Source: a virus. From it: a DNA stretch of 43,988 bases. Under the pieces are notes generated by a model. It did no database searches. It saw nothing but the letters and a program-made list of their open reading frames with translations, and was not told where the DNA came from. The first letter of the stretch is position 1, and each line of letters begins with the position of its first letter. This document shows positions 523 through 36,786 of this stretch, piece by piece. Where the stretch lies: IMG/VR virus record IMGVR_UViG_3300012944_000032. The stretch is one strand, 5' to 3'. Position numbers and translations under genes: made by a program.

Positions 523-1095
523 TTACTTCTTATCGAATTGCTTGCTGAATCCGGGCTTGATGAGTGCAACAGCATCTTCAAGCGGGACATTCGCACCACG
601 GGAATAGTTCCTTACAACGAGACGGAACTGAGTCTGGGCTTCAGGTGCCCAGCTAAGGTCAACGAACTCGGCCAATGGGTCAGATGCAGCCGTGTAAGCA
701 GCATCGTTGAATCCATCAATTAGGTAAGAGACGAGAGTTGGCTCATCTTTTACCGTAGTGATGTCCATGAACATCTGAATAGACGTTGGCAGAGTTTCTA
801 CCTTGCTGCGGTCGAATGCTTCCCAATCAATTACGATTGGATTCTTTCCACGAGTCTGACCAACCTGAACACGAACACCAACACCAGTTCGCTTGGCATT
901 CGTTTCATCAGCATCGACTTCACGGAGCTGCTGATTCAAATCACGAGTAACCTTCTCATCCTTTGATTCAGCAAGTTTTGCACGAATCGCAGCACGTTCC
1001 TTCTCGTAGTCTCGGACTGTGACTAATTCCTGTGGTGACGTTGCCTGTGTAGCCATTCCTGTCATTCCTTTTCCCGCGACTATCGTGCGCAGCAC
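523..1095 (-). CDS. Hypothetical early protein (190 aa from a GTG start; ATG starts at 1065 or 1056 are more likely)
   Basis: Long ORF directly downstream of a consensus sigma70 promoter. Visibly more GC-rich than the rest of the genome. No motif recognised. Confidence 0.8.
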   Translation of the reverse strand: MLRTIVAGKGMTGMATQATSPQELVTVRDYEKERAAIRAKLAESKDEKVTRDLNQQLREVDADETNAKRTGVGVRVQVGQTRGKNPIVIDWEAFDRSKVETLPTSIQMFMDITTVKDEPTLVSYLIDGFNDAAYTAASDPLAEFVDLSWAPEAQTQFRLVVRNYSRGANVPLEDAVALIKPGFSKQFDKK

Positions 1096-1125: not shown

Positions 1126-1154
1126 ATTATATCATGATTTGTGCGAAGTGTCAA
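1126..1154 (-). promoter_or_regulatory. Consensus sigma70 promoter with extended -10, reading leftward
   Basis: Minus strand reads TTGACA-cttcgcacaaatcatga(17)-TATAAT, with TGa immediately 5' of the -10. Upstream are (GCGAA)x3 and a T8 run. It is about 25-60 nt upstream of the candidate starts of 523..1095. Confidence 0.8.
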
Positions 1155-1534
1155 GCGCGAAGCGAAGCGAAAAAAAACCCAGGACCAGACTATCGTCTAG
1201 ATGCACGGCAGTTCATTCCGTGTCTCCGTTACTCTAGCTACATACTAGAGAGTGAATGATATCGCGTCACGAATAGTCCAGAGTCTAGGTATCCTCATGC
1301 TAGTCTTTTATTGCCTGTCGCGATAGACAGTAGGACTAGACTTACAGAGAACTTCCACCTAACTTTGCGAGCAATTCAGCGTATCGAACCTTGCGCCGTC
1401 GTCCCATACCCTACTACTACATGGGTCGTGCCAAGGCCCAAACCACAATATGTTGTGGTGTCAATCTGTGAAGACCCTATATGTTGGGGTGGCATATTAC
1501 CAAATTGTGATGCAACTAACGTCAATCGTAAGTT

Positions 1535-1965
1535 TGCACATTCTATCACTAAATTTCACATAAGAAATGATGTATAGTAGTGTGCAGTAGCAAGCAAAGA
1601 TGTAAATTACAATTCTAAATTGTACATTATGTCACCAGACTGCACACTTTAGCCAGTTTTGGCTCATTGTACACATTTGCATGTAATTGCACAATATTTC
1701 AATTGGCACGGCTTATGCCTATTACATATATGGTATGTGGCACATAGTTTGAACTGCATAAATCTGCACTGGCACGACTCTTGCCTTTACAGAATGACAC
1801 AGGGTTGCACTGGCATGATGTATGCTGTGTTCACTCTACTGCACATGTGCAATCCTGACTCAGCCGGTGTCATAGTGTGCAAGTCTTTCACATAGCTGCA
1901 CAATTCTTACTAAGAATTCATATCACAGGGGTATACATAGCTGCACGTAAGGTTCCATATGTGCA
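1535..1965. repeat. Dense array of TGCAC/GTGCA motifs in non-coding DNA
   Basis: At least 13 TGCAC/GTGCA occurrences counted by eye in about 430 bp. Includes the perfect palindrome TGCACATGTGCA (1840..1851), GTGCAC (about 1960), and ACATAGCTGCAC twice (1890..1901 and 1935..1946). Confidence 0.85.
1704..1826 (+). promoter_or_regulatory. Three to four GGCA-N7-TGCC dyads, equally readable as sigma54-like TGGCAC-N5-TTGC elements
   Basis: The sites are tTGGCACggcttATGCC (1704..1719), TGGCACgactcTTGCC (1770..1785, a perfect -24/-12 consensus), TGGCATgatgtATGCT (1811..1826), and a weaker TGGCACatagtTTGA (1738..1752). Confidence 0.5.
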
Positions 1966-2080
1966 CAAAATTTCCGGATATTAATCGTATTTGTGTCATC
2001 ATATTATTTAATCACATTTGTATGTTATCATTATTTAATTATTCATCAATTAAAAGCTGGTTCCATATGTGGTTCCATAC
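1951..2080 (+). repeat. GGTTCCATA(TGTG) repeated three times, flanking AT-rich direct repeats
   Basis: ggttccatatgtg occurs at 1951..1963 and 2059..2071, and ggttccatac at 2071..2080. Between them, ATCAT(AT)TATTTAAT occurs twice (about 1998..2013 and 2027..2040). Confidence 0.8.
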
Positions 2081-2167: not shown

Positions 2168-2196
2168 TTGACAAACGGCTTCGCCGGGTGTATGAT
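2168..2196 (+). promoter_or_regulatory. Near-consensus sigma70 promoter for the rightward (late/structural) arm
   Basis: TTGACA(2168..2173)-aacggcttcgccgggtg(17)-TATGAT(2191..2196), about 45 nt upstream of the first plus-strand gene. Confidence 0.75.
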
Positions 2197-3113: not shown

Positions 3114-3799
3114 AGGTATATATTGGCGTACCTACATCTGAACAAGCTCGGCATGCAGCATTCTATGATTATCTCTCGCTGCTTGAGAAGCCAGAAGGTA
3201 CTTGTGGTGCTAGCTTTCATTCTAATACCGCTGCATATAATCGTAACTTGATTATTGATGATGCACTAGCCGCTAAGTCGAGCCATGTTTTGTTTATTGA
3301 CGATGACATGGCTATGCCTACTGATTCACTCATCAGGTTGCTATCACATGATAAAGATATTGTTTCAGGACTCTATGTAAACAGGCAGTATCCTCATCCA
3401 CCTGTTATCTTCAATTTTATAAATGGTACCATGTCTAGGATTTATCTAACCCCAGAGAACGCAGGTTTGATGGAGGTTAGTGCGGCTGGATTTGGTTTTC
3501 TTTTGGTTAAGACGAAAGTCTTTGCAAGTCTTGATAAGCCTTACGTGAGGAATGGTGAGATTGTTAAAGATAGACGCAATGAAGATATAGACTTCTGTAA
3601 TAGAGCACGAGCGGCTGGGTTTAAGATTTATTGTGATTTAGATTGCCCTATTGGACATATTGGAACTACTACATTCTGGCCTGCATTCTCTGAAGGTAAA
3701 TGGGCAACAACCATTGATACTGGAGGAGATGAGGTATTCGTAGCAGCACAGAATCCTACAAAATTTGGTGAGATTAGAACACCTTTGACTAAATCATAA
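3110..3799 (+). CDS. GT-A fold (family 2-like) glycosyltransferase
   Basis: DxD motif LFIDDDM. Clear paralog of the N-terminal domain of 13275..14489 (AFYDY, LFxDDD, HDKDxVSGLY, HxPVIF). Confidence 0.7.
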   Translation: MKVYIGVPTSEQARHAAFYDYLSLLEKPEGTCGASFHSNTAAYNRNLIIDDALAAKSSHVLFIDDDMAMPTDSLIRLLSHDKDIVSGLYVNRQYPHPPVIFNFINGTMSRIYLTPENAGLMEVSAAGFGFLLVKTKVFASLDKPYVRNGEIVKDRRNEDIDFCNRARAAGFKIYCDLDCPIGHIGTTTFWPAFSEGKWATTIDTGGDEVFVAAQNPTKFGEIRTPLTKS

Positions 3800-4764: not shown

Positions 4765-6375
4765 GTGGCTTTCACAACTGGAGAATGGAAACCTACTAGG
4801 AAACAAGAGATATTTCTATCTCTGCCATTATCAATTAAAGAAGCATTGTATGGTGGAGGAGCCGGTTCCGCCAAAACAGACGTTCTCTTAATCTACGCAT
4901 TAGTTCATAAATGGCATGAACATCCTGGGTTTAAGCAAGTGTTCATGCGTCGTACATTCCCTGAACTTCGTAATGAAGTGATTCCACGTAGTAGACAATT
5001 ATATCCTAAGTTTGGTGCAACATTAAATAAATCGGATATGGCATGGACATTCCCTGCGCCAGACCAAATTGGCGGAAGAGGATTGTCAAACGCGGGAGCA
5101 ATGATTTTCCTTGCACAGTGTGAGGACGAAAATGACGTACATAAATATGATTCTATGGAAATTAACTTATTTACTCCCGATGAGCTTACTTCTTTTCTTG
5201 AGTACATTTATTTGTACGTTGGGTTTACTCGTGTACGTACTAGTATCCCTGAACTCCCGGCAATAATTCGAGCCGCTGGCATGCCCGGTGGAGTAGGACA
5301 TACATTCACAAACAAAAGATTTGTATCACCGGCTAAGCCAGGCACTATCATTGTCGGACGTGGTGGAGTTAAACGCATTTATATTCACGCTACGTTAGCT
5401 GACAATCCTCACATCGACCCGGCCTACAGACAATCACTAGAAGCATTACCAGAAGCTGAAAAGAGAGCTAAGCTCTATGGGGACTGGAATGCTTATTCAG
5501 GTCAGGTATTTGACGAGTTCAGAGATAGAAGATATCCTGATGAACCAGATAATGCATTACATGTAATAGATGAATTTGAAATTCCAGCTTGGTGGCCTAG
5601 AATCCTCATTGGTGATTGGGGATTTGCGGCTATGACTTGGTTAGGTTGGGGAGCTATTAGTCCTAATAAAAGATTGTATATTTACAGAGAACAATCATGG
5701 ACTAAAACTAAGATTGAGGAATGGGCACCAATTGTTAGGGAATTGATTGATATTGACCATCCGAGAATGATTAAGTTTTGTAAATCTGCTGGCCAAGAGC
5801 ATGGTCAGGAACATACTATTCAGGAGCAGATTAGTGATGCTCTAGACTTCCCAATTGAGCTAACTAATAATAGTCCGGGCTCTAGAATCGCTGGCAAACA
5901 ACTAATTCATGAGTATATGAGATGGAGGTCAAAGCCAATCTCGATTAAGGAGAAAGCAGCATATAGTGAAGAGCACTCAATGTGGCTTCTTCGTAATAGA
6001 GGAATGAATGAATACAAGTCATACATGATGTCATTTATTGAGCCAGCAGAAGAATCTAATCTACCCAAGTTACAAATTTTTAGTTCCTGCAAGTTGCTCA
6101 TTGATGCTATTAAAGCATGTTCATACGACAAGAAGAAGATTGAGGATATTGCTGCATTCGCTGGTGATGACCCTATCGATGGACTTCGTTACTTGGTAGA
6201 TGCAGCAGAGAATTACTTTGAAATTGCGGCTGATGAATTCAAAAGGATTCAGAAGCAAGAAGAGTTAGTTCATAAGCTAAGCAGTGATAATGATTTTACT
6301 GCATTCTATAGACAGATGAGAACAGCTGAATCAGATGAATCATATAAACCAATTCGCATGTTTCATCATAGATAA
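4765..6375 (+). CDS. terL: Terminase large subunit
   Basis: GTG start. Walker A-like YGGGAGSAKTD. Nuclease-domain acidic motifs IGDWGF and GDDPIDGLRY. Located upstream of the portal. Confidence 0.88.
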   Translation: MAFTTGEWKPTRKQEIFLSLPLSIKEALYGGGAGSAKTDVLLIYALVHKWHEHPGFKQVFMRRTFPELRNEVIPRSRQLYPKFGATLNKSDMAWTFPAPDQIGGRGLSNAGAMIFLAQCEDENDVHKYDSMEINLFTPDELTSFLEYIYLYVGFTRVRTSIPELPAIIRAAGMPGGVGHTFTNKRFVSPAKPGTIIVGRGGVKRIYIHATLADNPHIDPAYRQSLEALPEAEKRAKLYGDWNAYSGQVFDEFRDRRYPDEPDNALHVIDEFEIPAWWPRILIGDWGFAAMTWLGWGAISPNKRLYIYREQSWTKTKIEEWAPIVRELIDIDHPRMIKFCKSAGQEHGQEHTIQEQISDALDFPIELTNNSPGSRIAGKQLIHEYMRWRSKPISIKEKAAYSEEHSMWLLRNRGMNEYKSYMMSFIEPAEESNLPKLQIFSSCKLLIDAIKACSYDKKKIEDIAAFAGDDPIDGLRYLVDAAENYFEIAADEFKRIQKQEELVHKLSSDNDFTAFYRQMRTAESDESYKPIRMFHHR

Positions 6376-7160: not shown

Positions 7161-9491
7161 ATGACAGCAAAAGAACAAAGAAATGATAAGGTTCGTAACT
7201 TGCTTAAGCAGGTTGCAAATCATTTCGACCAAGAGGATAGAGCCGCTCGTGAGCGTCAATTAAGGAATTGGCGGCGGCTCAAGCTCCTTTGGGAAGGATT
7301 TCAGAGAGTATGGTACTCTGAAGTTGCTCATGATTGGCGCATTTGGGACGAAGAGATTAGCAACGCCGATAACGACCAGGCGTTTTATGATAAACCAATC
7401 AACGTATTTCGTGCCTATTTGGAATCTCTAATAGCTGCATTGTCAATTACGATTCCGGGTATTAAATGTTATCCTGACGATGCAGATAATCCTTTAGATT
7501 TAAGTACAGCTAAAGCTGGTGATAAAATTGCAGAATTAATTTATAGACATAATGATGCACCTATTCTCTGGTTGCATGCATTGTATATTAATATGACTGA
7601 GGGTATGACTGCTTGCTACTCATATCCTAAAGCAGATAATAAATTTGGAACTTATAAAGAGAATGAATATAAAGATGAAACTTCAGAAGTTTACATTTGT
7701 CCATTCTGTCAGCAGCAATTAGATGATGATTTATTTACTAAGCAGGAAGTTGATGAGTTTCAGCCAGATGATGACGATGTAGAACTTCATGATATCATTC
7801 TGAATCAAAATAAAGTAGTTTGCCCACAGTGCGCAACAATGTTAGACCCAGACTTGCAGAAGAGTTCACTAGTTGTTACTAGACTTGTTGGACAGAAAGA
7901 TGTTCCAAAGTCTAGAATTTGCATGGAAGCATATGGTGGTTTGTACGTAAAGGTACCAAATTATGCGATGAAACAGGAAGATATTCCATATTTAATCTTT
8001 AGTTACGAAACACATTATTCTAATGCTCTTGACAGATATGAACATTTGAGAGCTAAGTATACTGGCACTGGCAAGATTGGTGCTGCTGGCGGAGGAATGT
8101 ACGACCCGTATGAGCAATGGGCTAGACTCTCACCTCAATATCGTGGTGAGTATCCTACTAATAATGTTACTGTTCGCAATTGTTGGCTTCGCACTTCTGC
8201 TTTTAATATTTTAGCTAACGAAGAAGATATTGCTTTATTGAAGAAAGAATATCCTGATGGGGCTAAATTAGTTCTAGTTAACGATGAATGGGCCGAAGAC
8301 GAAAATGAGAGTCTTGATGATTGCTGGACCATTATCAAGAATCCTCTATCTGATTACATTCATTATTATCCTACAGGCTCATTGCTAGTTAGTGTACAGG
8401 ATATCACAAGTGACTTGATTAGTTTGGTATTGCAAACGATTGAACATGGTATTCAGCAGACATTTGCTGACCCTGGGGTTTTGAATTTTGAGAAGTACCG
8501 CCAAGCTGAAACAATGCCTGGTGGGGTATATCCTGCCATTCCTAAGACTGGTAAGTCGGTTAGTGATGGATTTTTTGAGACTAGAACTGCTACGCTGAGT
8601 CAGGAAGTGTTGCCATTTTTCAATATGATTCAGACGCTAGGTCAATCAGTTTCAGGAGCACAGCCTAGCCTATTTGGTGGGCAGCTTAGCGGCTCGAGAA
8701 CTGCATCTGAGTATTCAATGTCTAGAGCACAAGCTCTGCAGAGACTTCAGAATACTTGGAAGACATATACTCTTTGGTGGAAGACAATCTTTGCTAAAGT
8801 TATCCCAATGTATATTAAAGAAGTTCAAGAAGATGAGAAATCTGTTGAAAAGAATGAACAGGGTAATTTTATCAATGTATTCATTCGTAAAGCAGAACTC
8901 GAAGGTAGAATTGGTCGTATTGAACTAGAAGCCAACGAGAATCTACCAATTACATGGTCTCAACGTAAAGATACTTATATGGATTTGCTAAAACTTCAAA
9001 ATCCAGAAATCCTGAAAGCTCTTGCAGACCCAGAGAACGTTAAGTCTCTTGTTGAAGCTATTGGACTTGATGACTTTACTGTTCCTGGAGAAGATGATAG
9101 ACAAAAGCAGTATGAAGAAATTAGACTTCTAATTAATTCTGAACCTATTACGGTACCGGCTGACCCACAGCAAGTGGTAATGGCGTCTATGCAAGGAATG
9201 CCGCCTCCCCTGGATATTGAATTACCATCAGTTGAAATTGATCCTGACTTAGATAATCATGATATTGAAGCAGAGACATGTCGTACTTATCTAGTATCTG
9301 ATGCTGGACGGTTACTTAAACTTGAGAACCCGCTTGGCTATAAGAACGTGTTACTGCATATGAAAATGCACATGCAGGAAATTAAAATGAGCATGGCTCC
9401 CCCACAACAGCCTGGAATGCCATCTCCACCACAGCCAGCAGGCAGTAATATGCCTCTAGCAGGAAATTCAAATGTTGCTGCACAAACTTAA
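7161..9491 (+). CDS. Portal protein (776 aa)
   Basis: Size and position (terminase, then this ORF, then scaffold, then capsid). Contains an inserted CxxC...CxxC element at 7698..7832. Confidence 0.7.
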   Translation: MTAKEQRNDKVRNLLKQVANHFDQEDRAARERQLRNWRRLKLLWEGFQRVWYSEVAHDWRIWDEEISNADNDQAFYDKPINVFRAYLESLIAALSITIPGIKCYPDDADNPLDLSTAKAGDKIAELIYRHNDAPILWLHALYINMTEGMTACYSYPKADNKFGTYKENEYKDETSEVYICPFCQQQLDDDLFTKQEVDEFQPDDDDVELHDIILNQNKVVCPQCATMLDPDLQKSSLVVTRLVGQKDVPKSRICMEAYGGLYVKVPNYAMKQEDIPYLIFSYETHYSNALDRYEHLRAKYTGTGKIGAAGGGMYDPYEQWARLSPQYRGEYPTNNVTVRNCWLRTSAFNILANEEDIALLKKEYPDGAKLVLVNDEWAEDENESLDDCWTIIKNPLSDYIHYYPTGSLLVSVQDITSDLISLVLQTIEHGIQQTFADPGVLNFEKYRQAETMPGGVYPAIPKTGKSVSDGFFETRTATLSQEVLPFFNMIQTLGQSVSGAQPSLFGGQLSGSRTASEYSMSRAQALQRLQNTWKTYTLWWKTIFAKVIPMYIKEVQEDEKSVEKNEQGNFINVFIRKAELEGRIGRIELEANENLPITWSQRKDTYMDLLKLQNPEILKALADPENVKSLVEAIGLDDFTVPGEDDRQKQYEEIRLLINSEPITVPADPQQVVMASMQGMPPPLDIELPSVEIDPDLDNHDIEAETCRTYLVSDAGRLLKLENPLGYKNVLLHMKMHMQEIKMSMAPPQQPGMPSPPQPAGSNMPLAGNSNVAAQT

Positions 9492-10782
9492 TCTGACACC
9501 GTTCTTTGCTCCTGTAGATACTAGTAATGGCGTTGGTGCTATCGAAGATAAAGCATTATCACGTGATGAAGTTATTGACATGCTCGGTGAAGACGAGCCA
9601 GAATCAGAAACTCTTGAATTGGAAAAGCCTGCGAAAAAAGCAGCTAAAGATAATAATGAAGAAGATAAAGAAGAAGATAAAGATGATAAGGAAGAAAAAG
9701 AAAAGACCTTAGAAGAGGAAATTGAAGAGGAACTTGAAGAACCAGATGAAGACAAGTTAGAACTGACTGTTCCTATTCGTCGTAAGGAAGTTCTTGCAAA
9801 GTATCCTAATATCTTCAAAGAGTTTCCAGCTCTTGAAACATCTATGTATCGCGAAAGAGCTTATACAGAGATTCTTCCAACTATCGATGATGCAAAGATG
9901 GCAGTTGAAAAATCAGAAAGGCTGGATACTTATGAAAATGAAATTCTAAACGGTTCAACAGAATCTATTCTGACAGCCGTTCTCAACTCTGATAAAGACT
10001 CATTCAATAAAGTTATAGATAATTATCTCCCTACATTGTACAAGGTTAATGAAGCAGCTTATTATCATACTCTTGGAAATGTAATTAAGCATACCATTAT
10101 GACGATGGTTAAAGATGGGAAAGATAATGGTATTGATGATTTGATTGCAGCCGCCGATGTTGTTAATCAGTACATCTTTGGCAGCAAACAATTCACGCCA
10201 CCTCAGAAACTCTCTACTGATAGTGCAAAGAGTAAAGAAGTTAACGAAGTAGAAGAGAGAGAACAGAAGTTCGTTCAGCGTCAGTTTGATACGGCTAGGG
10301 ATAGTGTTACCACTAAAACAGAGAATATCCTAAAAGCTACGATTGATAAAAACATTGACCCCAATGAGTCAATGACTAATTATGTTAAGAAGAATGCTAC
10401 TCGTGAAGCGTACGAGCAGTTAGAATCTACTATTGCAGTCGATTCCAGATTTCGGATTGTTTTGGATAAACTCTGGGAGAAGGCTTTTAGTGATGATTTT
10501 AGCACAGAGTCAATGGACAGAATCAAATCAGCCTACTTGTCCAAGGCAAAGACTCTACTGCCATCTATTATCAAGAAGAATAGGAATGAAGCACTTAAAG
10601 GACTCGGTAAGCGAGTCCGAGATGATGATGAAGATACTAATAAGAGAGATAAGAGAGGTCCACTACCTGTTGGCAAGGCAAGGAGTCAATCCACCTCCCC
10701 TCAAAGTGGAAAGACAGTAAAGGACCAAGCTAGAGCCATTCCAAAAGGAACGAGCACTCTAGACTACTTGATGCGAGATTGA
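9472..10782 (+). CDS. Scaffolding protein
   Basis: Highly acidic and Lys-rich, helical (EEDKEEDKDDKEEKEKTLEEEIEEELEE). Lies between portal and capsid. Confidence 0.6.
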   Translation: MLLHKLNLTPFFAPVDTSNGVGAIEDKALSRDEVIDMLGEDEPESETLELEKPAKKAAKDNNEEDKEEDKDDKEEKEKTLEEEIEEELEEPDEDKLELTVPIRRKEVLAKYPNIFKEFPALETSMYRERAYTEILPTIDDAKMAVEKSERLDTYENEILNGSTESILTAVLNSDKDSFNKVIDNYLPTLYKVNEAAYYHTLGNVIKHTIMTMVKDGKDNGIDDLIAAADVVNQYIFGSKQFTPPQKLSTDSAKSKEVNEVEEREQKFVQRQFDTARDSVTTKTENILKATIDKNIDPNESMTNYVKKNATREAYEQLESTIAVDSRFRIVLDKLWEKAFSDDFSTESMDRIKSAYLSKAKTLLPSIIKKNRNEALKGLGKRVRDDDEDTNKRDKRGPLPVGKARSQSTSPQSGKTVKDQARAIPKGTSTLDYLMRD

Positions 10783-10792
10783 GGATACTAAC

Positions 10793-12040
10793 ATGGCACT
10801 TGTTGAGTCTCAAGTCACAGCACTTGAGCTTGAAAGAGTAATCCCGAAGATTCGTACTCTCTTTGAGAGAGACGATAAGTTCTTTTCAAACATTCAGAAG
10901 AGGGATGTTGAAAAGATTTCTAACCGTCAGATGCGAGTTCCTCTTGAACTGCGTCCCGGTGGCTCATTTCAGTATTTCAATCCTGATGGTGGAGATTTGG
11001 GACGTGGTGGTGGACCAACCTTCGATAAGGCTGTTCTCTCATGCGTGTTCGTCTCAGAGAATATTGAATATACCAAGCTAGCTCAGTGGGCAACCGATGA
11101 TGATAGAAAGTCTATTGTCAATGGTGTGCGTCGTCTTACAGCTACGGCATTAGATGAACTCCGGCGTCAGCTGGATTCTCAGATGATGCAGGCTGGAAAT
11201 GGTGTTATTGGTACTGTTACCACTGATACACCTGCCGGTGGAAGCAATGTTATTACACTAACAACTGATGGATTTGGTGCTCGTCTGATGCGCTTTGGTC
11301 AGACAGTTCAAGTCTTTAACGCTGCCCTCTCAACAAATCGTGGTAGCGGTCTTATCACGAATTGGGATGTTGAGAACAAAACCATTAGTATCACTCCTCA
11401 GATTGCTGGTGTGATTGGTACTGATGTGATTGTTACCAACGGCATCACTGCACCAACTGCATTGCCTGCTCTGTTTGGTATTCCATACCATCATAGCAAT
11501 GCTTCTACTGGTACGTGGCTTGGATTCTCCAGGAGCACTACACCAGAGATTCGTGCAAACAGAGTGAATGCAGCTTCGGCTGCTCTCACATTGCCTCTGC
11601 CACGTCTTGCTATCAATAAGATTGGTAACAGGATTGGTATTGACAACGACTTCTCTCCAAATGCATGGATGCATCCTGCTCAGAAGGCAGCTTATGAAGA
11701 GATTGGGCAGCTCATGTCCACTATCTTCAAGAAGCCTACTGATGAAAGTCTTAACGTCTATTTCGATGGAATGCAGATGGCTGGCGCACCAGTCAAATGT
11801 TCATTCAATTGGGATAAGACACGTATTGACTTCGTAACGGATTCAGTGTGGGGACGTGGTGAAATTCTCCCACTTGGATTCTATACTACTGATGGAAGGA
11901 ATATCTTTGAAATTCGTGGGGCATCTGGCGGTGTTGCTACGGCAGAGATCTTCTACATGGTTATTGGTACTCAGACATTCGTCAATAACCCTGCTGGCTG
12001 TGCATTCATTGACACGCTAGCCGTTCCTTCGGGGTATTAA
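10793..12040 (+). CDS. Major capsid protein
   Basis: 415-aa ORF after the scaffold. GAGGA SD. Called by position and size. Confidence 0.65.
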   Translation: MALVESQVTALELERVIPKIRTLFERDDKFFSNIQKRDVEKISNRQMRVPLELRPGGSFQYFNPDGGDLGRGGGPTFDKAVLSCVFVSENIEYTKLAQWATDDDRKSIVNGVRRLTATALDELRRQLDSQMMQAGNGVIGTVTTDTPAGGSNVITLTTDGFGARLMRFGQTVQVFNAALSTNRGSGLITNWDVENKTISITPQIAGVIGTDVIVTNGITAPTALPALFGIPYHHSNASTGTWLGFSRSTTPEIRANRVNAASAALTLPLPRLAINKIGNRIGIDNDFSPNAWMHPAQKAAYEEIGQLMSTIFKKPTDESLNVYFDGMQMAGAPVKCSFNWDKTRIDFVTDSVWGRGEILPLGFYTTDGRNIFEIRGASGGVATAEIFYMVIGTQTFVNNPAGCAFIDTLAVPSGY

Positions 12041-12041
12041 C

Positions 12042-12257
12042 ATGGCAGCAACAGTAACAGTGACAGGAACTGCTGGACCAGGACTTACCGTTACAGCAGT
12101 TGTATTTACTAACGTAACATCTTTTCAAGTTGATACAGTCAACAATATGTTAAACATGATTCAGGGTAGTGTTCCATTGCCTGGCATTGCTGTGCAAGCG
12201 GCTACTACTGTTACCGCTACGAAGAGTGGTAGCACTTGGACACTAACAATTAGCTAA
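12042..12257 (+). CDS. Small Thr/Val-rich virion-associated protein (71 aa)
   Basis: Immediately follows the capsid gene. All-beta composition. Confidence 0.6.
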   Translation: MAATVTVTGTAGPGLTVTAVVFTNVTSFQVDTVNNMLNMIQGSVPLPGIAVQAATTVTATKSGSTWTLTIS

Positions 12258-12292
12258 CTAGGAATCTATCTTTATGGTGGAGGAGGAAAAGA

Positions 12293-12598
12293 ATGATTCC
12301 AGGTCTAACAACAAAGTTATCAGAAACTAACGTAGCAGCAGCTGCATCTATTTTTGCAAAATCTGACGTTGTCAGGGTTACTGACACTACTAGCACCACA
12401 GTACTGACCACAATCGTACCAGGTGGTGCTGGTTTTAGTCAGGTAATCTTTTTGCAAAACAAAACAGCTGCTGCAATTACTATTGTTACTACTGGAAATG
12501 TTTCCGGTCAGGGCACATTTACTATTGCAATAAATAGAATGGCTGTATTGGTATTTAGTAAGTTAGAAGCTAAATGGTCAGTTTGCAACGACACGTAA
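12293..12598 (+). CDS. Small beta-rich protein, paralog family member 1
   Basis: Strong SD GGAGGAGG. Shares TTIVPGG...TTGNVSG...MAVLVFS...W with the next two ORFs. Confidence 0.7.
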   Translation: MIPGLTTKLSETNVAAAASIFAKSDVVRVTDTTSTTVLTTIVPGGAGFSQVIFLQNKTAAAITIVTTGNVSGQGTFTIAINRMAVLVFSKLEAKWSVCNDT

Positions 12599-12610
12599 AG
12601 GAGAATTTAA

Positions 12611-12922
12611 ATGCCGGACCTTAGTTTCCAGGATATCTCTACAGTACAAAATTCACTGCAGCCTAAACCTGTAACATTCGTGGCTGCAGCTACTATTTCT
12701 CCAGTAACATTTCTTACAATTCTTACTGGTAACACATCGGTATCAACGATTGTACCGCCTGTTACTGGTTCACATATGTTGGCTATTGTTCCTGGTACCA
12801 CTCTTGGTTTTACTACTGGTGGTAACGTGACTGGTGGAACAACTACTATTTCTGGAAGAGCAGTATTGCTTGTATACAATCCATTGACTAATGGGTATGC
12901 TGCTCAGTTTTCGAATGGGTAA
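12611..12922 (+). CDS. Small beta-rich protein, paralog family member 2
   Basis: SD AAGGAG. Shares STIVPPV...TTGGNVTG...RAVLLVYN. Confidence 0.7.
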   Translation: MPDLSFQDISTVQNSLQPKPVTFVAAATISPVTFLTILTGNTSVSTIVPPVTGSHMLAIVPGTTLGFTTGGNVTGGTTTISGRAVLLVYNPLTNGYAAQFSNG

Positions 12923-12970
12923 CTAGACAAGGAGTGGGGTGCGCATACACATCACGCACACTGGAGTGTT

Positions 12971-13243
12971 ATGGTTTCATTAAGTTTAGGAAGTCCTTTA
13001 ACTGTTATTGATAATACTATTACACCTACTCATGATGTTCATCGTGTCTCTGGTGAATATCCAGCTGTTATTAAAACTATTAATATTCCAAATCCGAGTT
13101 TTTGTGGTATGTTAATATTAATTGTAGATGGCTGGCTTGCATTTGAGGCTGGAGGAAATGTTATACCAAGCTCTGCACATGACCAACAACCAACTATTTT
13201 GATATATGACACTGTAATAGAAAAATGGTGCCCAAGTGCATAA
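12971..13243 (+). CDS. Small beta-rich protein, paralog family member 3
   Basis: Shares KTINIPNP...EAGGNVIP...TILIYD...W. Confidence 0.65.
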   Translation: MVSLSLGSPLTVIDNTITPTHDVHRVSGEYPAVIKTINIPNPSFCGMLILIVDGWLAFEAGGNVIPSSAHDQQPTILIYDTVIEKWCPSA

Positions 13244-13274
13244 TATAATTTTATATTGCCAGAATTGAGTAGGC

Positions 13275-14489
13275 ATGACTAAAGTTTTAGTAGCTGTTCC
13301 AACTGGTGAAACATCTAGATATGCTACTTTCTATGATTATTATAATCAATTAGAGAGGGCTGAAGGAACTCTTCATATGTTTGCTAGAGGCCAATCACCG
13401 GCTAAAGGCAGAAATATGATGATTCAGGCAGCTATTGATAATGAATGCACTCACATCTTATTTCTTGATGACGATGTAATTCCTCCGTCAGATATTCTTA
13501 AGAAGTTGCTAGCTCATGATAAAGATGTAGTATCAGGTCTCTATCCAATGAGGGATTTTCCACATTATCCAGTAATATTCGACAAGAGATTTCAAAACGG
13601 ATTTAATAGACACACTCATCTCAAGAGTGAAATTGACGGTCTAATTGAAATTACTAATTGTGGTTTTGGATGTGTATTGATTAAGATGCACGTTTTTAAT
13701 CTACTTAAAAAGCCTTGGGTTACTCTTGGTGAGTTAGAAGCTGACGGCTGGTGTGATGACATTGCATTCTTCAATAAACTTGGGGATGCTGGCATCAAAA
13801 TGTACTGTGATACCAGCGTACTTGTTGACCACATGATGACAATTCATGTTGGTTTTAGACGTGTTAATGATAGTTGGATGATTAATTATGATAATCGGGG
13901 TAAAGGTAATTTACAGTTTCCAATTACATATCCATCTTCTGACGTTGATATTGCAAGGCGTATCGATGGATGGTTATCAGATAAAGAATTAGATTTTCTT
14001 GGGGTAGCTGGTAAGACATACAAATATATCCTCGAGGTTGGTTCTTATAAGGGTAAGTCAGCTAGGGCATTTGCAGATAATACATCTGGACAAGTAATGT
14101 GCATTGATACATGGAATTCTGTTGTTTGTGGTGCAGATGGTAAGCCAATCTACACAACAAATGATGCTACTTATGTAGATTTTGTAAAGAATTTACAAGA
14201 ACATATCGAAACTAAGAAGGTAATTATCAATAGAATGAATTACAAAGATTTTGTTCCCAATGGTTTCAAGCCTGACTTTATTTTCATTGACGCTGCTCAT
14301 GATTATGAATCAGCAAAGCATGATATTGAAAAATCTATGTCAATGAATCCTTGGATTATTGCAGGTCATGACTATGATTCAAAAGTATGGCCTGGCGTCG
14401 TTAAAGCTGTGGATGAAAAATTCAGCAAAATCAACCTCGTTGATACAATTTGGTGGGTGGAAAATGACAGATTTGGTGAATCCGTTTGA
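13275..14489 (+). CDS. Bifunctional GT-A glycosyltransferase / class I SAM-dependent methyltransferase fusion
   Basis: N-terminal half is paralogous to 3110..3799 (LFLDDDV). C-terminal half has GWLSDKE, ILEVGSYKGKSARAFA, FIFIDAAHDYES and AGHDY, a Methyltransf_24-like pattern. Confidence 0.75.
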   Translation: MTKVLVAVPTGETSRYATFYDYYNQLERAEGTLHMFARGQSPAKGRNMMIQAAIDNECTHILFLDDDVIPPSDILKKLLAHDKDVVSGLYPMRDFPHYPVIFDKRFQNGFNRHTHLKSEIDGLIEITNCGFGCVLIKMHVFNLLKKPWVTLGELEADGWCDDIAFFNKLGDAGIKMYCDTSVLVDHMMTIHVGFRRVNDSWMINYDNRGKGNLQFPITYPSSDVDIARRIDGWLSDKELDFLGVAGKTYKYILEVGSYKGKSARAFADNTSGQVMCIDTWNSVVCGADGKPIYTTNDATYVDFVKNLQEHIETKKVIINRMNYKDFVPNGFKPDFIFIDAAHDYESAKHDIEKSMSMNPWIIAGHDYDSKVWPGVVKAVDEKFSKINLVDTIWWVENDRFGESV

Positions 14490-14700
14490 TCCTCTTGTTC
14501 CTGTTGAACCTGTAGTAGAACCAGAACCTGAAAAAAAACCTGTAGAACCAGAAGTACCAGTAGTAGAACCTGAGCCTACAGAAAAAGCAAAACTTCTTTT
14601 ATCTATTCAAGATGCACTAGCGGAGGCTAATGGACTTGAATCAAATATTGGTACTAGCCATCCATATTGGGGTTGGGTTAATAAGTATCGTGGAATGTAA
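14464..14700 (+). CDS. Small Pro/Glu/Val-repeat protein (78 aa)
   Basis: ATG at 14464 within the longer ORF 14359..14700. Sequence is VPVEPVVEPEPEKKPVEPEVPVVEPEP. Overlaps the 3' end of the GT-MTase gene. Confidence 0.5.
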   Translation: MTDLVNPFDPLVPVEPVVEPEPEKKPVEPEVPVVEPEPTEKAKLLLSIQDALAEANGLESNIGTSHPYWGWVNKYRGM

Positions 14701-15284
14701 TGGAAATCAATGAACCAGTAGAGTCAATTAACGCTTCGTTAGTTGACTATTACGGCGTAGATACAATCACAGGTGATCCTATCTGGCGTGTTGTATGGTC
14801 AGAGGATCAATTTGAACATAGGTTGGGAACGTATGATGATTTTGTTCCTAACACTGAAATATATCTCAGGACTGTAACTGAAGTTAGATACGTTCCTAAA
14901 TATAGACAATGGATTAAACAAAAATTCGTGTTGGAACGGCTGGTTGTTATTCCAGAATCTAACATTCCAGAGCTTCCTGCAACAAAAGTATCTTATGAAC
15001 CTATTTATGTATTTGAGACTGGTTCTGGTAAATATTTGCCACCTAATCTTCAAGCAGCTAAATTTGTTGTTGATACAATATATGCTGCTACCGGAAAGAG
15101 TTCTATGGCCAAATATAAAGATCCTGACGCCGGATTGAATAAAGAAGATCAGTTTGATAAGAAAGTTTCTGAAATTGATGCAATTCAAAAAGAATTGTTT
15201 GGTAATGAGTCCCTTGTAGGTGATGCCTTGGCACATGACCAGGCTATTGTTGTTCCACGTAACTACGAGAAAAAGGTGAATTGA
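14700..15284 (+). CDS. Virion structural protein (hypothetical)
   Basis: 194-aa ORF. ATGG/TAATG coupling inside the structural block. Confidence 0.65.
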   Translation: MEINEPVESINASLVDYYGVDTITGDPIWRVVWSEDQFEHRLGTYDDFVPNTEIYLRTVTEVRYVPKYRQWIKQKFVLERLVVIPESNIPELPATKVSYEPIYVFETGSGKYLPPNLQAAKFVVDTIYAATGKSSMAKYKDPDAGLNKEDQFDKKVSEIDAIQKELFGNESLVGDALAHDQAIVVPRNYEKKVN

Positions 15285-15285
15285 A

Positions 15286-15984
15286 ATGGGAGTTGTTGGT
15301 CAGTTTCCTCTAATGTCTGATTTGAAGCGCAGAACTATTCGTGCGCCAGTGAATCCGATGGATAAATGTACTGTAGTTTCCATTTACCCAAAACATATTC
15401 CACCTGAAACTAAGCCAACTATCCAACCTGGAGTGTTTCAGATTCCATATGGAACATACGAACATCCTGGTATTTTGGTGGTTGGTCCTAGTTCATGGTG
15501 GAAAGAGTTGGATGAGAATCAACCGTTACTTGAAATTCCACAGTCATCTATTCAAGTTGCGGACTCAATCGTTAAGGATTGGGCTAATGGTATTTATGGA
15601 TGTGATATGGGTGAACAGATGCCTGGATTGTTTTATCTTCCTGGTGAATGGACTGTAATTAAAATTAAAATGGAGAAACAAGCTGAACTTCAAGAAGCCA
15701 ATCGCAAACAGCGTAATTGGTTTCAGTTTCTAGTCAATTCAGCTGATTCTTCATGGGCTAGAACGAATGGTAGTCCACTCTCTATCAGTGATGATATGAG
15801 AATGGCTGCTCGTGAATTGAATCTTATTCAGAAAGAATGGCTTAGGGACGCTGAAATTGTTGATCTTGTTCGTTGCAAGGCTTGTGGTGCTCTAAAGAAT
15901 CCAGCTTATCCAATTTGCCCAAATTGCAAATCTATTGATGACCCAGCTAAAGCTAAAACACTTGGTTTGACGTTCGCACAATAA
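15286..15984 (+). CDS. Virion structural protein with a C-terminal zinc ribbon
   Basis: CKACGALKNPAYPICPNCKS at the C-terminus. Confidence 0.65.
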   Translation: MGVVGQFPLMSDLKRRTIRAPVNPMDKCTVVSIYPKHIPPETKPTIQPGVFQIPYGTYEHPGILVVGPSSWWKELDENQPLLEIPQSSIQVADSIVKDWANGIYGCDMGEQMPGLFYLPGEWTVIKIKMEKQAELQEANRKQRNWFQFLVNSADSSWARTNGSPLSISDDMRMAARELNLIQKEWLRDAEIVDLVRCKACGALKNPAYPICPNCKSIDDPAKAKTLGLTFAQ

Positions 15985-16698
15985 ATGGGGACAACTTCAT
16001 TAACAGCCGCACAAGTAATGGATAGGTCTGCGTCTTTAATGAATGACACAGCCAGAACAACCTATACTTATCAAGCTCAGCTACCATATCTTAATATGGC
16101 ATTTGATGAGTTACAAGAAGCATTTGAACTTAATAACATTCCAATTACGAATCAAACTGCTGCTACTATTGTTGTAAATGTTGGTGTCTTATCAATCAAT
16201 CCAGTGGATGGTCAAGGTGCAGGAGTAGCACCTAACTATCCAACTGATTTGGTTGAAATTCAAGGATTATACGAAAGACTTAGTGGTAGTCAAGACCCAT
16301 TTGTTCCTATGGTTCAAAGGGAATTTCTACCACATGCACTCGATAATCTTCCAACAGAATCACTTCAGTATTGGATTTTCGAGAATCAGCAGATTAAATT
16401 CATTGGTGCTCTCACTATACGAGATGTTAGAATTGATTATATCAAAGCTATCTTCTCTAGTGAAATCAATTCGAGCAGTCTTATTGGAGTTATCAATGCT
16501 AGGAGTTTTCTGTATTATAGAACGGCTGCTCTCTGCAGTCAATTTATTGGTGAAAACAAAACAAGAGCAGATGAATTGAATCAATTTGCTACACTAGCTA
16601 TGGATAGAGTTACAGGAATTGGTGTGAAAGGTAAGCAATCCATTCAGACGAGAAGGCGACCATTCATGGCAGCCTACAAACGTCGTAGCTTCACATAA
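15985..16698 (+). CDS. Putative tail tubular/adaptor protein
   Basis: 237 aa, immediately upstream of a 634-aa ORF, in a podovirus-like order. Called by position only. Confidence 0.4.
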   Translation: MGTTSLTAAQVMDRSASLMNDTARTTYTYQAQLPYLNMAFDELQEAFELNNIPITNQTAATIVVNVGVLSINPVDGQGAGVAPNYPTDLVEIQGLYERLSGSQDPFVPMVQREFLPHALDNLPTESLQYWIFENQQIKFIGALTIRDVRIDYIKAIFSSEINSSSLIGVINARSFLYYRTAALCSQFIGENKTRADELNQFATLAMDRVTGIGVKGKQSIQTRRRPFMAAYKRRSFT

Positions 16699-18602
16699 TG
16701 AGAGACCATGACCCTATCACCATAGAAGAATTTAATGGTTACTTCAATAGAGGTGATCAAGAGACAGTACCGAAAGATCACTTTACTGAAGTTAATAATA
16801 TTAATTATACAGAATCAGCATTCGAAACTAGAGATGGAATTGACCCATTCAATTCTCCTGTAAGTATTGCACCTGATAATGTTCTGAGAATTCATCCATA
16901 TAAGATGCAAACACAACAGTCATTACTTGTATTGACTACTGGCGGTCACATTCATCATATACTATCTTCGACAGTAGTTTTTAATGATATTTTAGTTAAA
17001 CCTTTAATGACAGATTTTAACACTGTAGCTATTGCTGGAAGAGCTTATATCACTCCATTCTTCACTAATGCTAGCGGTCAAGAAGTTGGTCTTCAAAATG
17101 AATTTCTTTATGTATATAAAGGTGATGGAGTAGCCGCTCGCAAGGCCGCAGGTGATGCTCCTACTGGCACGCCACTAATTGCCAACGCAAGTGGTGCTGG
17201 ATTTAGTGATTTAGGATTTAAATTATTTGCAGTAGTATATGAAACTGACACAGGCTATTTAACGGCTCCTGGACCAGAGGTATTTGCTAGCGCAACATCT
17301 ATTGACAATAATTTAGGATTTGACATTACTAATATTCCTGTAGCTCCAGGAACTACTGTAACTGTCAAACATATTGTAGCTACTAAAACAATTAATAATT
17401 ATAATGGGGATCAAACTGGATTTCAGTTCTTTTTTGTCCCTGATTCAGATATGACTAATGCAACTACTACTAAACACATTGATTTCTTCGATATCGATTT
17501 GCTCGATGATGCTAGCCATCTAATCGATAACTTCGCAGACATTCCGGCTGGTGTTGGGCTTAACACGTATCATGGAAGATTAGTTCTTACAACTACATTT
17601 GCTGATATTTCAGTCGCTTACGCTTCAGAACCTGGTGAACCAGAAGCAATTAATCAGGTTGATGGAGTAATGATTGTTACTCTTGATGGTAAGCCGCTAA
17701 CGAATTGTCAAGAATATAGAGATGTTTTATATCTATACAAAGCTACTACTACAGTTGGTTATTCAGATAATCAGGATGTTCCATCTACATGGCAACCATT
17801 CATCGTAGATGAGAGTATTGGTGCTCCTGTTCATGGAATTGGTACTGTATTAGACTCTGGAGGAGTGAATGTTGACTATCTTCTTGTCGCTGATTATAGT
17901 GGCATATTCTTATTTAATGGCGCATACACTAGACCAGAGCTATCATATAAAATTCAAAATTTCTGGTTCGGACTTGATAGAACAACCTTTCGTAAGATAG
18001 AATTAGTTAATGATTCAGTTGCTCAAATATTATATTGTGTATTGCCAACTGGTACAGTTCTCGTTGGTGATTATAATAATGGAAATGATTCACAGAATAT
18101 TAGATGGTCTAAATGGACATTTAATATTTTAATTACATCTATTGATCTTATTGATACAAGCACTCTGCTTCTTGGTGCAAATGCTAATGGAGTTAATCAA
18201 TCTGGTTTATACAAAGTTGTAGTTGATAAGACTAATGACTCACTGTATGATAATGTCAATACCATCTCTAACGTCAAGATTCCTGACCCGCTGATTAAGA
18301 CAGCATATCCACAACTAAGTGCTAACGAAGCAATTCTTCATTTTGCGGCAATTAGAGTAAGGGCTGTAGGAGTTGGTAACTTACTACCAAAGTTTTACTC
18401 ATTGGACAATGTTCTAACAAGTTCATTGGTAGCATTGCCAATGTTGACAGCTAGTGCCAGACATCTCACAAGAACAGCTAATTTTCAGACTGATAGAGCC
18501 GCTCTTGAATTGAAAACTTCTGTGATTAACGAAGTATTCAATATTAACAGGATTGTACTGTATGCTAAGGAAGTATTTATCGATTATCCATCGGTTCAAT
18601 AA
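16698..18602 (+). CDS. Putative tail tubular (nozzle) protein
   Basis: 634 aa, beta-rich. Called by position only. Confidence 0.4.
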   Translation: MRDHDPITIEEFNGYFNRGDQETVPKDHFTEVNNINYTESAFETRDGIDPFNSPVSIAPDNVLRIHPYKMQTQQSLLVLTTGGHIHHILSSTVVFNDILVKPLMTDFNTVAIAGRAYITPFFTNASGQEVGLQNEFLYVYKGDGVAARKAAGDAPTGTPLIANASGAGFSDLGFKLFAVVYETDTGYLTAPGPEVFASATSIDNNLGFDITNIPVAPGTTVTVKHIVATKTINNYNGDQTGFQFFFVPDSDMTNATTTKHIDFFDIDLLDDASHLIDNFADIPAGVGLNTYHGRLVLTTTFADISVAYASEPGEPEAINQVDGVMIVTLDGKPLTNCQEYRDVLYLYKATTTVGYSDNQDVPSTWQPFIVDESIGAPVHGIGTVLDSGGVNVDYLLVADYSGIFLFNGAYTRPELSYKIQNFWFGLDRTTFRKIELVNDSVAQILYCVLPTGTVLVGDYNNGNDSQNIRWSKWTFNILITSIDLIDTSTLLLGANANGVNQSGLYKVVVDKTNDSLYDNVNTISNVKIPDPLIKTAYPQLSANEAILHFAAIRVRAVGVGNLLPKFYSLDNVLTSSLVALPMLTASARHLTRTANFQTDRAALELKTSVINEVFNINRIVLYAKEVFIDYPSVQ

Positions 18603-19024
18603 TGCCGTTCAAACCTCCGGTTGAAAAACCACAATTTGCTGATTTAATTGTTTCGCTAGATAATTCTCGTTCACAAACTAAAGACAATGCCTTTTATCAA
18701 ACAGTTTATTTACTTTTACAGAGACTTACCAAATTTAGAAATCTAGTTATTAATGATATCAATGGTCTAGCAACGGCTTCTGATTCATTTAAAAATGCTA
18801 CCTATTTAACTCAAGATGATGAAACTATTGCATTACCAAATTCTCGTAAAGTAATTAGAACTCTTGGTATTGGATTTGACGATTCTGTTCCAGGCGAAAG
18901 AATTGTAACGCTAACTCATTATTGGACTCCATTAACAGATGGTGATGTTGATCAGACTGATATAATTTATGCTAATGGTGAAGCAATAGCCGTAGAAGTT
19001 CCTATTATTGCTCCATTCCCGTAG
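18602..19024 (+). CDS. Hypothetical structural protein
   Basis: 140-aa ORF, translationally coupled (TAATG). Confidence 0.6.
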   Translation: MPFKPPVEKPQFADLIVSLDNSRSQTKDNAFYQTVYLLLQRLTKFRNLVINDINGLATASDSFKNATYLTQDDETIALPNSRKVIRTLGIGFDDSVPGERIVTLTHYWTPLTDGDVDQTDIIYANGEAIAVEVPIIAPFP

Positions 19025-19032
19025 AGATAACT

Positions 19033-19200
19033 ATGCCACTGAATCCGCCACAAAACTTTCGTAAATATATTTCACTTCATAGGCGTGGTCTAGCCGCTAA
19101 TAGGCCAAACGCAGCTGATGTATTGCCAGGAACATTATATTTTTCTACAGATACTTTAGTTTTAGAACGGTCTAATGGGACCATCTGGGAAAGTTACTAA
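19033..19200 (+). CDS. Free-standing 55-aa copy of the fibre N-terminal module
   Basis: My translation is MPLNPPQNFRKYISLHRRGLAANRPNAADVLPGTLYFSTDTLVLERSNGTIWESY. It aligns with residues about 9-48 of 19554..20321. Confidence 0.55.
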   Translation: MPLNPPQNFRKYISLHRRGLAANRPNAADVLPGTLYFSTDTLVLERSNGTIWESY

Positions 19201-19209
19201 GGAGACAGA

Positions 19210-21363: not shown

Positions 21364-21366
21364 AAC

Positions 21367-36677: not shown

Positions 36678-36786
36678 TGATTTGCCATCCTTCGCTTCTC
36701 CAACCACAATCTAAACATTCTAAGTATATTTTGCCATCAAGACAATGCCTGATTGTCTCATGATGCTTACACTTAAATATCTTCAT
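36664..36786 (-). CDS. Small zinc-ribbon protein (40 aa from the internal ATG of track ORF 36664..36909)
   Basis: MKIFKCKHHETIRHCLDGKIYLECLDCGW. The longer form would overlap 36773..37129 extensively. Confidence 0.4.
   Translation of the reverse strand: MKIFKCKHHETIRHCLDGKIYLECLDCGWRSEGWQINDKE

Follow-up and report, generated by a model that had tools for sequence, protein, structure and literature searches.

A conserved array of 10-bp-phased TGCAC sites, probably bound by a protein, in the central control region of an uncultured phage family

The viral record IMGVR_UViG_3300012944_000032 of IMG/VR, a stretch of 43,988 nucleotides analysed here as a whole and called the window below, carries at positions 1535-1967 an array of short sites, TGCAC and its variants, that follow one another in exact steps of 10 bp. 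These sites are strongly enriched relative to the rest of the genome, their motif and register are conserved in distantly related phages, and they occupy preferred positions relative to -24/-12 elements of the sigma-54 type. It is probable that they form a cis-acting array bound by a protein. More specifically, the array may serve as an operator or proximal enhancer for sigma-54-type transcription out of a regulatory hub, a reading that we favour tentatively and to which we grant a little under an even chance.

An earlier note on this DNA, made from the sequence alone, had reported a 16-fold local excess of TGCAC. The excess is confirmed and is in fact closer to 20-fold, with 13 TGCAC/GTGCA pentamers in 1535-1966 against 0.64 per 430 bp elsewhere. 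Base composition predicts 0.60 per 430 bp, the best other segments of that length in the genome contain 4, and a Poisson estimate gives P(≥13 | 0.64) = 2.7e-13. The palindrome TGCACATGTGCA (1840-1851), the GTGCAC at 1961-1966 and the 12-mer ACATAGCTGCAC, exactly repeated at 1890-1901 and 1935-1946, are all present as described. Two copies of TGCACTGGCA had been said to be fused to dyads; the copies exist (1765-1774 and 1806-1815), but instead of symmetric dyads we found the asymmetric -24/-12 pattern of sigma-54 elements. As for a depletion of the motif elsewhere, which had been proposed as a check, it is mild at most: TGCACA occurs 28 times in the genome, against 31.8 +/- 5.7 in dinucleotide shuffles, with 10 copies within 1535-1967 and 18 outside the array.

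The repeat unit is a decamer made of a 4-nt spacer and a hexamer T[G/A/T][C/T]ACA, the best copy of which is TGCACA. The TGCAC pentamer is its best-conserved part, and TGTACA, TATACA, TTCACA and GTTACA are tolerated variants. Decamers are arranged in runs of two to five units on either strand, in exact 10-bp steps (Table 1). Between 1530 and 1970 there are 25 hexamers of the form T[GAT][CT]AC[AGT], against 5.1 in shuffles, and four pairs of them lie exactly 10 bp apart (0.04 in shuffles), with none at 8, 9, 11 or 12 bp. The same periodicity is seen in eight array-bearing relatives, in which same-strand hexamers are separated by 10 bp (28 pairs), 20 bp (16), 30 bp (10) or 40 bp (5) and never by 9 or 11 bp; the coding background is devoid of such a peak. 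When 56 TGCAC sites from six homologous regions are aligned, CACA appears 8 bases upstream and TATACA 10 bases downstream, and the base that follows the pentamer is A in 42 sites and C in a single one. Two 8-mers, ATTGCACA and TGCACACT, occur 13 and 11 times in these six regions, with a background of 0 for both.

Protein-anchored scans of IMG/VR and of soil and groundwater metagenomes yielded about 100 loci, all with the same layout: a gene that we call gene X, a non-coding region and the first late gene. No relative was found in two scans of 185,579 reference genomes, and the 718 homologues of gene X are all metagenomic, with a functional name on none of the named ones. Arrays of at least 10 TGCAC are present in about one third of the intergenic regions recovered from relatives, and both the motif and the 10-bp register are kept in phages whose flanking proteins are 40-55% identical to those of the window. 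In one of them, L013, the neighbouring proteins are 40-53% identical to the window's, yet blocks of 19-31 bp are held in common, such as TGTATARTAGTGTGCAGTA; the 20-bp unit of run B, TACTGCACACTAYTATACA, is found three times in L013, and the 31-bp block at 1876-1902 is 87% identical to a block there. The most widely conserved part is the right-end module (1922-1967), whose hexamers are kept while the spacers vary, and which is present even in relatives without the rest of the array. It is flanked by the conserved boxes GGGGTAYA and CCGGATATTAATC (1974-1986). Two close relatives depart from this picture: in L001 the array is absent apart from its right end, and L010 has no TGCAC array and harbours GAGTCATAT-type repeats in 10-bp steps instead, as does L033. 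These GAGTCATAT / ACTCTATGAT repeats (L010, about 3560-3730; L033, intergenic region) often abut a -24 element and contain GANTC. Another locus, L102, was considered as a close relative for substitution analysis and set aside: nearly all its differences from the window are indels of one base, and sequencing errors in one and the same phage are the probable explanation.

A motif beyond chance, an exact 10-bp register and conservation among phages with 40-55% protein identity all speak, at the level of sequence, for the proposal of the earlier note that short sites for one DNA-binding protein are arrayed here. It appears most improbable that the array is without function and just a side product of tandem duplication or of a structured RNA transcript. 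Duplication would account for the 47-bp super-repeat formed by runs C and D and for the exact 12-mer repeat, but both the motif and its register are retained even where lineages can no longer be aligned beyond the hexamers. Folded as RNA, the array does no better than its shuffles (z = -0.42), and the window has no Rfam match, even at E ≤ 5 for 1-2400; this lack of an RNA-structure signal fits a role at the DNA level.

Three elements of the sigma-54 type, P1 to P3, are embedded in the array. The pattern TGGCAY-N5-WTGC has three matches in the genome against 0.32 expected, all on the plus strand, within 122 bp (1704-1825) and inside the array. The sigma-54 consensus is TGGCACG-N4-TTGCW, and P1, P2 and P3 match 10, 11 and 10 of its 12 specified positions, each with the strict GG-N10-GC spacing. 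According to the usual -12 rule, transcription from P1 would start near 1730. A count over 18 non-redundant relatives gave 43 copies of GGCAY-N6-TGC and 0-5 for each other spacing from N1 to N10; to judge from the sequence, this corresponds to the rigid GG-N10-GC arrangement that characterises sigma-54 promoters. The family logo reads T-GGCA-Y-R-N4-W-TGC-W, in which position -14 is mostly A (ATGC) and thus deviates from the consensus T. Since C follows TGC in only 8 of the 43 occurrences, the element is asymmetric and has no dyad. Relatives carry one to seven near-consensus elements each, among which a leftward copy stands at the left border in almost all lineages. This copy has the consensus T-GGCATGGCCGATGC-TATATA, and the conserved sequence that comes next suggests a real transcription unit. 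The window has only a degenerate homologue of this copy (Table 1), and it lacks a basic 89-residue open reading frame (ORF) that 32 of 44 relatives have downstream of the conserved leftward element (e.g. L001, 4685-4954).

The decamers are not placed at random relative to these elements. Around 98 non-redundant elements, the starts of co-oriented hexamers peak at -17, -27 and -37 relative to the GG, and hexamers on the opposite strand have no preferred position. In about ten lineages, exactly 11 nt separate the end of the triple TGCACA-N4-TATACA-N4-TATACA from the GG of the leftward element that follows. Run D of the window likewise ends 11 nt before the GG of P1, which is the geometry of the conserved promoter module of the relatives, and runs E and F stand at 0 nt from P2 and P3. 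As 0 and 11 nt differ by about one helical turn, a protein bound at either distance would be turned toward one and the same side of the promoter element. We also tried TTGCAC as a -35 element of sigma-70 promoters, and rejected it: no consistent -10 element was seen by eye at 16-18 bp, and a scan returned only background.

From these regularities we infer that a protein binds the array, that sigma-54 RNA polymerase uses the -24/-12 elements and in which direction the regulation would run. One sequence-specific protein would bind the decamers side by side on one face of the helix, and the array would thus serve a cooperatively binding regulator as an operator or proximal enhancer, gating transcription by the host sigma-54 RNA polymerase out of the hub. 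P1 to P3 would then direct transcription rightward to the late operon, and no terminator-like site was found on the plus strand between them and the first late gene.

Several observations speak against such a role. The fixed decamer geometry is found at only about 7-10% of the -24/-12 elements. In the relatives these elements occur in both orientations, some as convergent pairs, which is odd for productive promoters and fits a decoy for sigma-54 polymerase equally well. Classical sigma-54 activators bind dyads 80-150 bp upstream and not direct decamers that abut the -24 element. Searches of Pfam and PHROGs returned no AAA+ enhancer-binding activator, sigma factor or recognisable repressor among ORFs most of which match nothing, and a Sigma54_activat domain was found in none of the ORFs. 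No ORF within about 4-10 kb co-varies with the array when 21 array-bearing lineages are compared with 23 array-lacking ones. The host was found in neither of two scans of genome collections. Lastly, the array is replaceable, because the close relatives L001 and L010 do without it; sequence comparison thus portrays it as functional but replaceable, with motifs that are specific to lineages.

The search for a co-varying protein comprised a comparison of the window's proteins with the relatives and the clustering of ORFs in 19 and in 44 lineages. In the latter, the clusters that seemed associated with the array were spurious Cys/His-rich ORFs encoded by the array itself. Four proteins have features of DNA binders, namely 33866-34141, with an apparent helix-turn-helix by eye and no Pfam or PHROGs match, 42666-43304, with a zinc finger by eye and a sub-threshold H-NS-like Pfam match, and 34138-34524 and 36773-37129, with zinc-finger or zinc-ribbon features according to Pfam. 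All four are also kept in relatives without the array. As for the host, a search with the glycosyltransferase returned mostly metagenomic proteins and gave no clue. P0154, a homologue of 2245-2637, is labelled as belonging to a Nitrososphaera sp. metagenome-assembled genome; this is probably a binning artefact, since the sigma-70, sigma-54 and NrdR sites are bacterial in type.

Some of these points would be accommodated if the region were a decoy. The -24/-12 elements and TGCACA sites would then sequester a host factor as the genome amplifies, and the target could be the sigma-54 RNA polymerase, whose closed complexes are stable, a TGCACA-binding protein of the host, or both. This proposal is close to the 'titration' mentioned in the earlier note; for the silencing that it also lists, we saw no direct evidence in either direction. 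The number of near-consensus elements in the relatives and their two orientations are in line with it, as are the back-to-back convergent pairs that some of them form, whose members cannot both fire, and the failure to find an activator gene. We nevertheless regard a decoy as quite unlikely: direct evidence for it is lacking, the three elements of the window are all co-oriented toward the late genes, the conserved sequence downstream of the leftward element suggests a real transcription unit, and the exact 10-bp register is left unexplained.

The operator reading gains from the immediate neighbourhood of the array. NrdR is a bacterial repressor that senses dATP and ATP, and a canonical operator for it, made of two tandem boxes, lies 46 bp to the left of the array. 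As this operator adjoins the array and two near-consensus sigma-70 promoters flank it, the context is one of transcription control. Both boxes carry all six key positions (C4, A6, A8, T9, T11 and G13), which are highly conserved in described NrdR operators; such an operator consists of a pair of 16-bp boxes, each partially palindromic, and a linker of 15-16 bp (PMC13584703). Among the relatives, the spacing from box to box has a sharp maximum at 31 bp (21 pairs), and a score of 16/16 is reached by one box. In the window and in many relatives, the slot at 9-11 nt from the leftward element is occupied by the NrdR box pair, and elsewhere by the decamer triple. This slot being a position for the binding of a regulator, an operator role is the simplest reading for the TGCACA units as well. 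The array does resemble an NrdR operator in one respect, as its extended motif TGCACACTAT holds an NrdR half-box (ACACWAT), but it lacks full boxes (no match of at least 12/16 inside 1535-1967), and NrdR needs both. No ribonucleotide reductase was detected in the phage. To our knowledge, no case has been described of a 430-bp phased decamer array with embedded near-consensus -24/-12 elements and an NrdR operator without a recognisable ribonucleotide reductase.

It is tempting to speculate that an unrecognised phage regulator, not of the AAA+ type, sits on the decamers at the -24 element and gates, activates or traps the sigma-54 holoenzyme without a distant enhancer, and that the same slot has been wired to NrdR in sister lineages. 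We consider this rather unlikely. If true, the family would run its central switch through the host sigma-54 RNA polymerase by a novel mode of control, and its phages would have a novel means of sensing host physiology.

The features of the region are collected in Table 1. Three further boxes conserved in the family accompany them: GGTTCCAT, in three copies (1951-1958, 2059-2066 and 2071-2078), TTTCAAAAAATGAAATCTTCA (2103-2123), about 45 bp upstream of the late sigma-70 promoter, and the CCGGATATTAATC box already mentioned. None of them could be matched to a regulator that can be named.

Table 1. Features of the control region (positions in the window; a dot marks features given without strand)
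Feature	Position	Strand	Description
Sigma-70 promoter of gene X	1126..1154	-	TTGACA-N17-TATAAT, 12/12; boundary of the region
Degenerate leftward -24/-12 element	1419..1433	-	TGGCACGACCCATGT, GT instead of GC; positional homologue of the conserved leftward element
Tandem NrdR boxes	1443..1489	.	CCACAATATGTTGTGG (1443) and ACCCTATATGTTGGGG (1474); 15-bp linker
Whole decamer array	1535..1967	both	about 25 hexamers T[G/A/T][C/T]AC[A/G/T], 13 with TGCAC
Run A	1535..1560	+	TGCACA-N4-ATCACT-N4-TTCACA
Run B	1561..1586	-	TGCACA-N4-TATACA-N4-TTCTTA; contains the 20-bp unit TACTGCACACTAYTATACA
Run C	1621..1656	+	TGTACA, GTCACC, TGCACA, AGCCAG in 10-bp steps
Run D	1668..1693	+	TGTACA-N4-TGCATG-N4-TGCACA
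P1, sigma-54-type element	1704..1719	+	TGGCACGGCTTATGCC; GG 1705-06, GC 1717-18
Run E	1755..1770	+	TGCATA-N4-TGCACT; abuts P2
P2, sigma-54-type element	1770..1785	+	TGGCACGACTCTTGCC; 11/12 of TGGCACG-N4-TTGCW, best match in the genome
Run F	1796..1811	+	GACACA-N4-TGCACT; abuts P3
P3, sigma-54-type element	1811..1826	+	TGGCATGATGTATGCT
Run G	1830..1851	.	TTCACT-N4-TGCACA; overlaps the palindrome TGCACATGTGCA
31-bp block	1876..1902	.	TGCACA (-) at 1876-1881, then TTCACA-N4-TGCACA (+) at 1887-1902
Right-end module	1922..1967	+	five decamers: ATCACA, TATACA, TGCACG, GTTCCA, TGCACA
Sigma-70 promoter of the rightward packaging/structural operon	2168..2196	+	TTGACA-N17-TATGAT, 11/12; boundary of the region

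The last 122 bases of the window are identical to the first (43867-43988 = 1-122), and therefore we regard it as the circular assembly of a complete phage genome of about 43.87 kb. A MEGAHIT assembly of the same contig also exists. The genome, at 39% G+C, is organised in two blocks. Genes on the plus strand span 2245-28381 and include the large terminase (4765-6375). Those on the minus strand run from 43510 down to 28371 and form a replication and recombination module that encodes an SNF2 helicase, a PD-(D/E)XK nuclease, AAA_24 and DUF669 proteins, a family-A polymerase fused to a UDG-like domain and a DUF3987 primase-helicase (28371-29618). Gene X (523-1065, minus strand) is a lone leftward gene with its own sigma-70 promoter. 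The 1.1-kb non-coding stretch that separates gene X from the first rightward gene (1096-2244) contains the array, which forms the core of the central control region of the phage, with gene X on one side and the packaging/structural operon, which runs rightward, on the other. The two sigma-70 promoters at the boundaries of this stretch point outward and are kept in relatives.

The phage is remote from cultured ones. The DNA of 1100-2300 has no similarity to cultured phages, and for the large terminase and the polymerase the best identity to any cultured phage is only about 25-30%. In the virion module (7161-26456, plus strand), 18 of the 19 large ORFs have no Pfam match at E ≤ 0.001; presumably they include the portal, capsid and tail proteins, and this module is very divergent. 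The sole large ORF with a match there encodes a methyltransferase/glycosyltransferase-like protein (13275-14489). The structure of gene X is predicted with confidence (predicted local distance difference test, pLDDT, 88.7), and a comparison of the model with the PDB gave no significant match. No integrase or lysogeny module is apparent in the phage, and no tRNA was found. A 71-residue protein (34681-34896, minus strand) matches the Acb2/Tad1 hairpin domain (E = 2e-12), which we take to be the fold of phage sponges for immune signalling nucleotides, making this a candidate anti-defence gene. The ORF 39581-40087 contains an internal degenerate tandem repeat of a hexamer (GTTGTA) and a 12-mer at 39808-39901.

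The non-coding stretch also holds a conserved minus-strand element at 1289-1352, with three stems and an invariant GUAAGUCU internal loop. Compensatory changes affect 14 of its 17 pairs (24 lineages), and on the minus strand G-U pairs exceed A-C mismatches, which suggests a leftward RNA. The element has no counterpart in Rfam, and the whole 243-nt stretch folds unexceptionally (z = -0.46). Downstream of gene X, three relatives carry Pistol self-cleaving ribozymes above the Rfam gathering threshold (L004, 4036-4103; L013, 1094-1156, minus strand; L024, 4954-5018); none was found in the window.

Another reading is that of a replication origin, in which the decamers would be iterons for a phage initiator such as the DUF3987 primase-helicase, and an AT-rich stretch would be unwound. 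There is a precedent in phage P4, whose alpha protein binds short type I iterons at ori and crr. The repeats, in both orientations, adjoin a stretch of 82% A+T (1981-2056), the phage encodes a primase-helicase and a family-A polymerase, and different repeats occupy the same place in relatives, as co-evolution of initiator and iterons predicts. The cumulative GC skew changes direction near 2 kb and 28 kb, but these turns coincide with the switch in gene orientation and are hence not independent evidence. Moreover, the primase-helicase is 78% identical in L018, the same contig as the array-less L010, and shows no co-variation with the array; nor does the polymerase. The constant distances of 0 or 11 nt to the -24/-12 elements, and the replacement by NrdR boxes, are signs of a role in transcription. 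DnaA boxes (TTWTNCACA) were rejected: the region has no perfect match, and the five matches with one mismatch in 1532-2016 are weak. The genome total is 80, against 123 expected. A more origin-like region also exists elsewhere, at 43552-43617, 43733-43762 and 48-93, with a layout that is conserved in relatives. An origin at the array is therefore, in our opinion, unlikely. The other region contains inverted tandem decamer arrays (AACGTGTCGG, 6.6 copies, and TTACGACACA, 4.6 copies) that lie on either side of an AT-rich stretch, upstream of the leftward early operon, and L030 and L043 have the same layout with other decamers. From its sequence, it is a candidate for an origin or an early operator.

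Packaging offers another reading, to which we give little chance. The array would be a pac site, where the small terminase subunit binds clusters of hexamers and headful packaging starts, as at pac of phage P1, with its clusters of TGATCA/G hexamers, or at pacL and pacR of SPP1, with their phased boxes. It does lie upstream of the operon that contains the large terminase, its left cluster is on one strand and its right cluster on the other with a variable centre between them, and both the circular assembly and the contigs of relatives, which break anywhere, are compatible with circular permutation. However, a small terminase could not be recognised; for the first late gene, the model is helical and of low confidence (pLDDT 67), and there is no family match. 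The array-less L001 and L010 have large terminases 86% and 82% identical, and first late proteins 60% and 63% identical, to those of the window, and the geometry relative to the -24/-12 elements would be left unexplained. As for a centromere, which had also been suggested by the earlier note, no ORF has a Pfam match to ParA, ParM, TubZ, ParB or ParR; this counts weakly against it, given that most ORFs match nothing.

It is very unlikely that the sites sense methylation, the palindromic TGCA core being the target of a methyltransferase and the phased sites being read by a protein sensitive to their state, as with the GATC clusters at oriC/SeqA and P1 pac. TGCA is present in most strong units, the sites are phased by whole helical turns, and the alternative repeats of L010 and L033 contain GANTC (GAGTC/GACTC), a known methylation motif. 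Nevertheless, many in-register units are devoid of TGCA (TATACA, TGTACA, TTCACA and GTTACA), and no DNA methyltransferase was detected, the Methyltransf_24 match in 13275-14489 being to a generic S-adenosylmethionine-dependent methyltransferase domain.

Among known systems, the closest in layout are the Cox protein of P2 and the Apl protein of 186, small phage helix-turn-helix proteins that bind five to nine direct repeats about one turn apart in a switch region between divergent or face-to-face promoters. TorR also binds tandem boxes side by side. In the window, runs of three to five direct repeats in exact 10-bp steps are found 0 or 11 nt from -24/-12 elements. Like the Cox and Apl sites, the array has many short direct repeats in a central switch region, implies cooperative, filament-like binding, and differs in motif between related phages. 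In contrast, its step is exactly 10 bp, its runs lie on both strands and its neighbours are of the -24/-12 type, and no Cox-, Apl- or Xis-like gene was recognised in the phage. The 6-8-bp repeat clusters of P1 pac and of the P4 ori and crr type I iterons, recognised by a phage protein, are similar in that they extend over a few hundred bp, in two groups and with both strands in use. The array differs in that no small terminase or initiator can be linked to it; neither terminase nor primase co-varies with it, and those systems do not explain its coupling to promoter elements.

The NtrC sites of glnAp2, TGCACC-N5-GGTGCA, invite another comparison. The TGCAC of the array equals an NtrC half-site, the sites cluster upstream of promoters, and the bipartite GG-N10-GC elements of the window match the consensus at 10-11 of 12 positions. 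Unlike at glnAp2, direct decamers abut the -24 element and no dyads lie 80-150 bp upstream, position -14 is mostly A, and no enhancer-binding protein was found. We also looked for the 17-bp NtrC dyads themselves and discarded them, since the offset of 12 from TGCAC to GTGCA never occurs among the pairs of the eight arrays.

Phage YuA has experimentally active -24/-12 promoters (NC_010116 annotation; PMC10914365). It shares with the phage of the window a virulent lifestyle, the lack of its own RNA polymerase, sigma-54-type beside sigma-70 promoters, and genes for a family-A polymerase, helicases and a primase. Its three promoters are single, lie inside structural genes and match the consensus loosely, and the first 50 kb of its 58.7-kb genome contain no strict TGGCAY-N5-WTGC match, whereas the elements of the window are near-consensus, clustered in one non-coding hub and placed inside a repeat array. 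Tandem operator boxes in phage control regions were thus already known, as were sigma-54-type promoters in one cultured phage, YuA. In this light, the array, which is real, non-random and conserved, is best classed as a putative phage operator array, of a known kind but with unusual partners, sigma-54-type elements and an NrdR operator. The phage family is large, lives in soil and groundwater and has no cultured relative. If the sites work as proposed, they would give handles on the timing of its gene expression, on the host factors that it depends on, sigma-54 and NrdR, and on the identity of its hosts, and the set of motifs provides a sequence signature with which further members of the family can be found.

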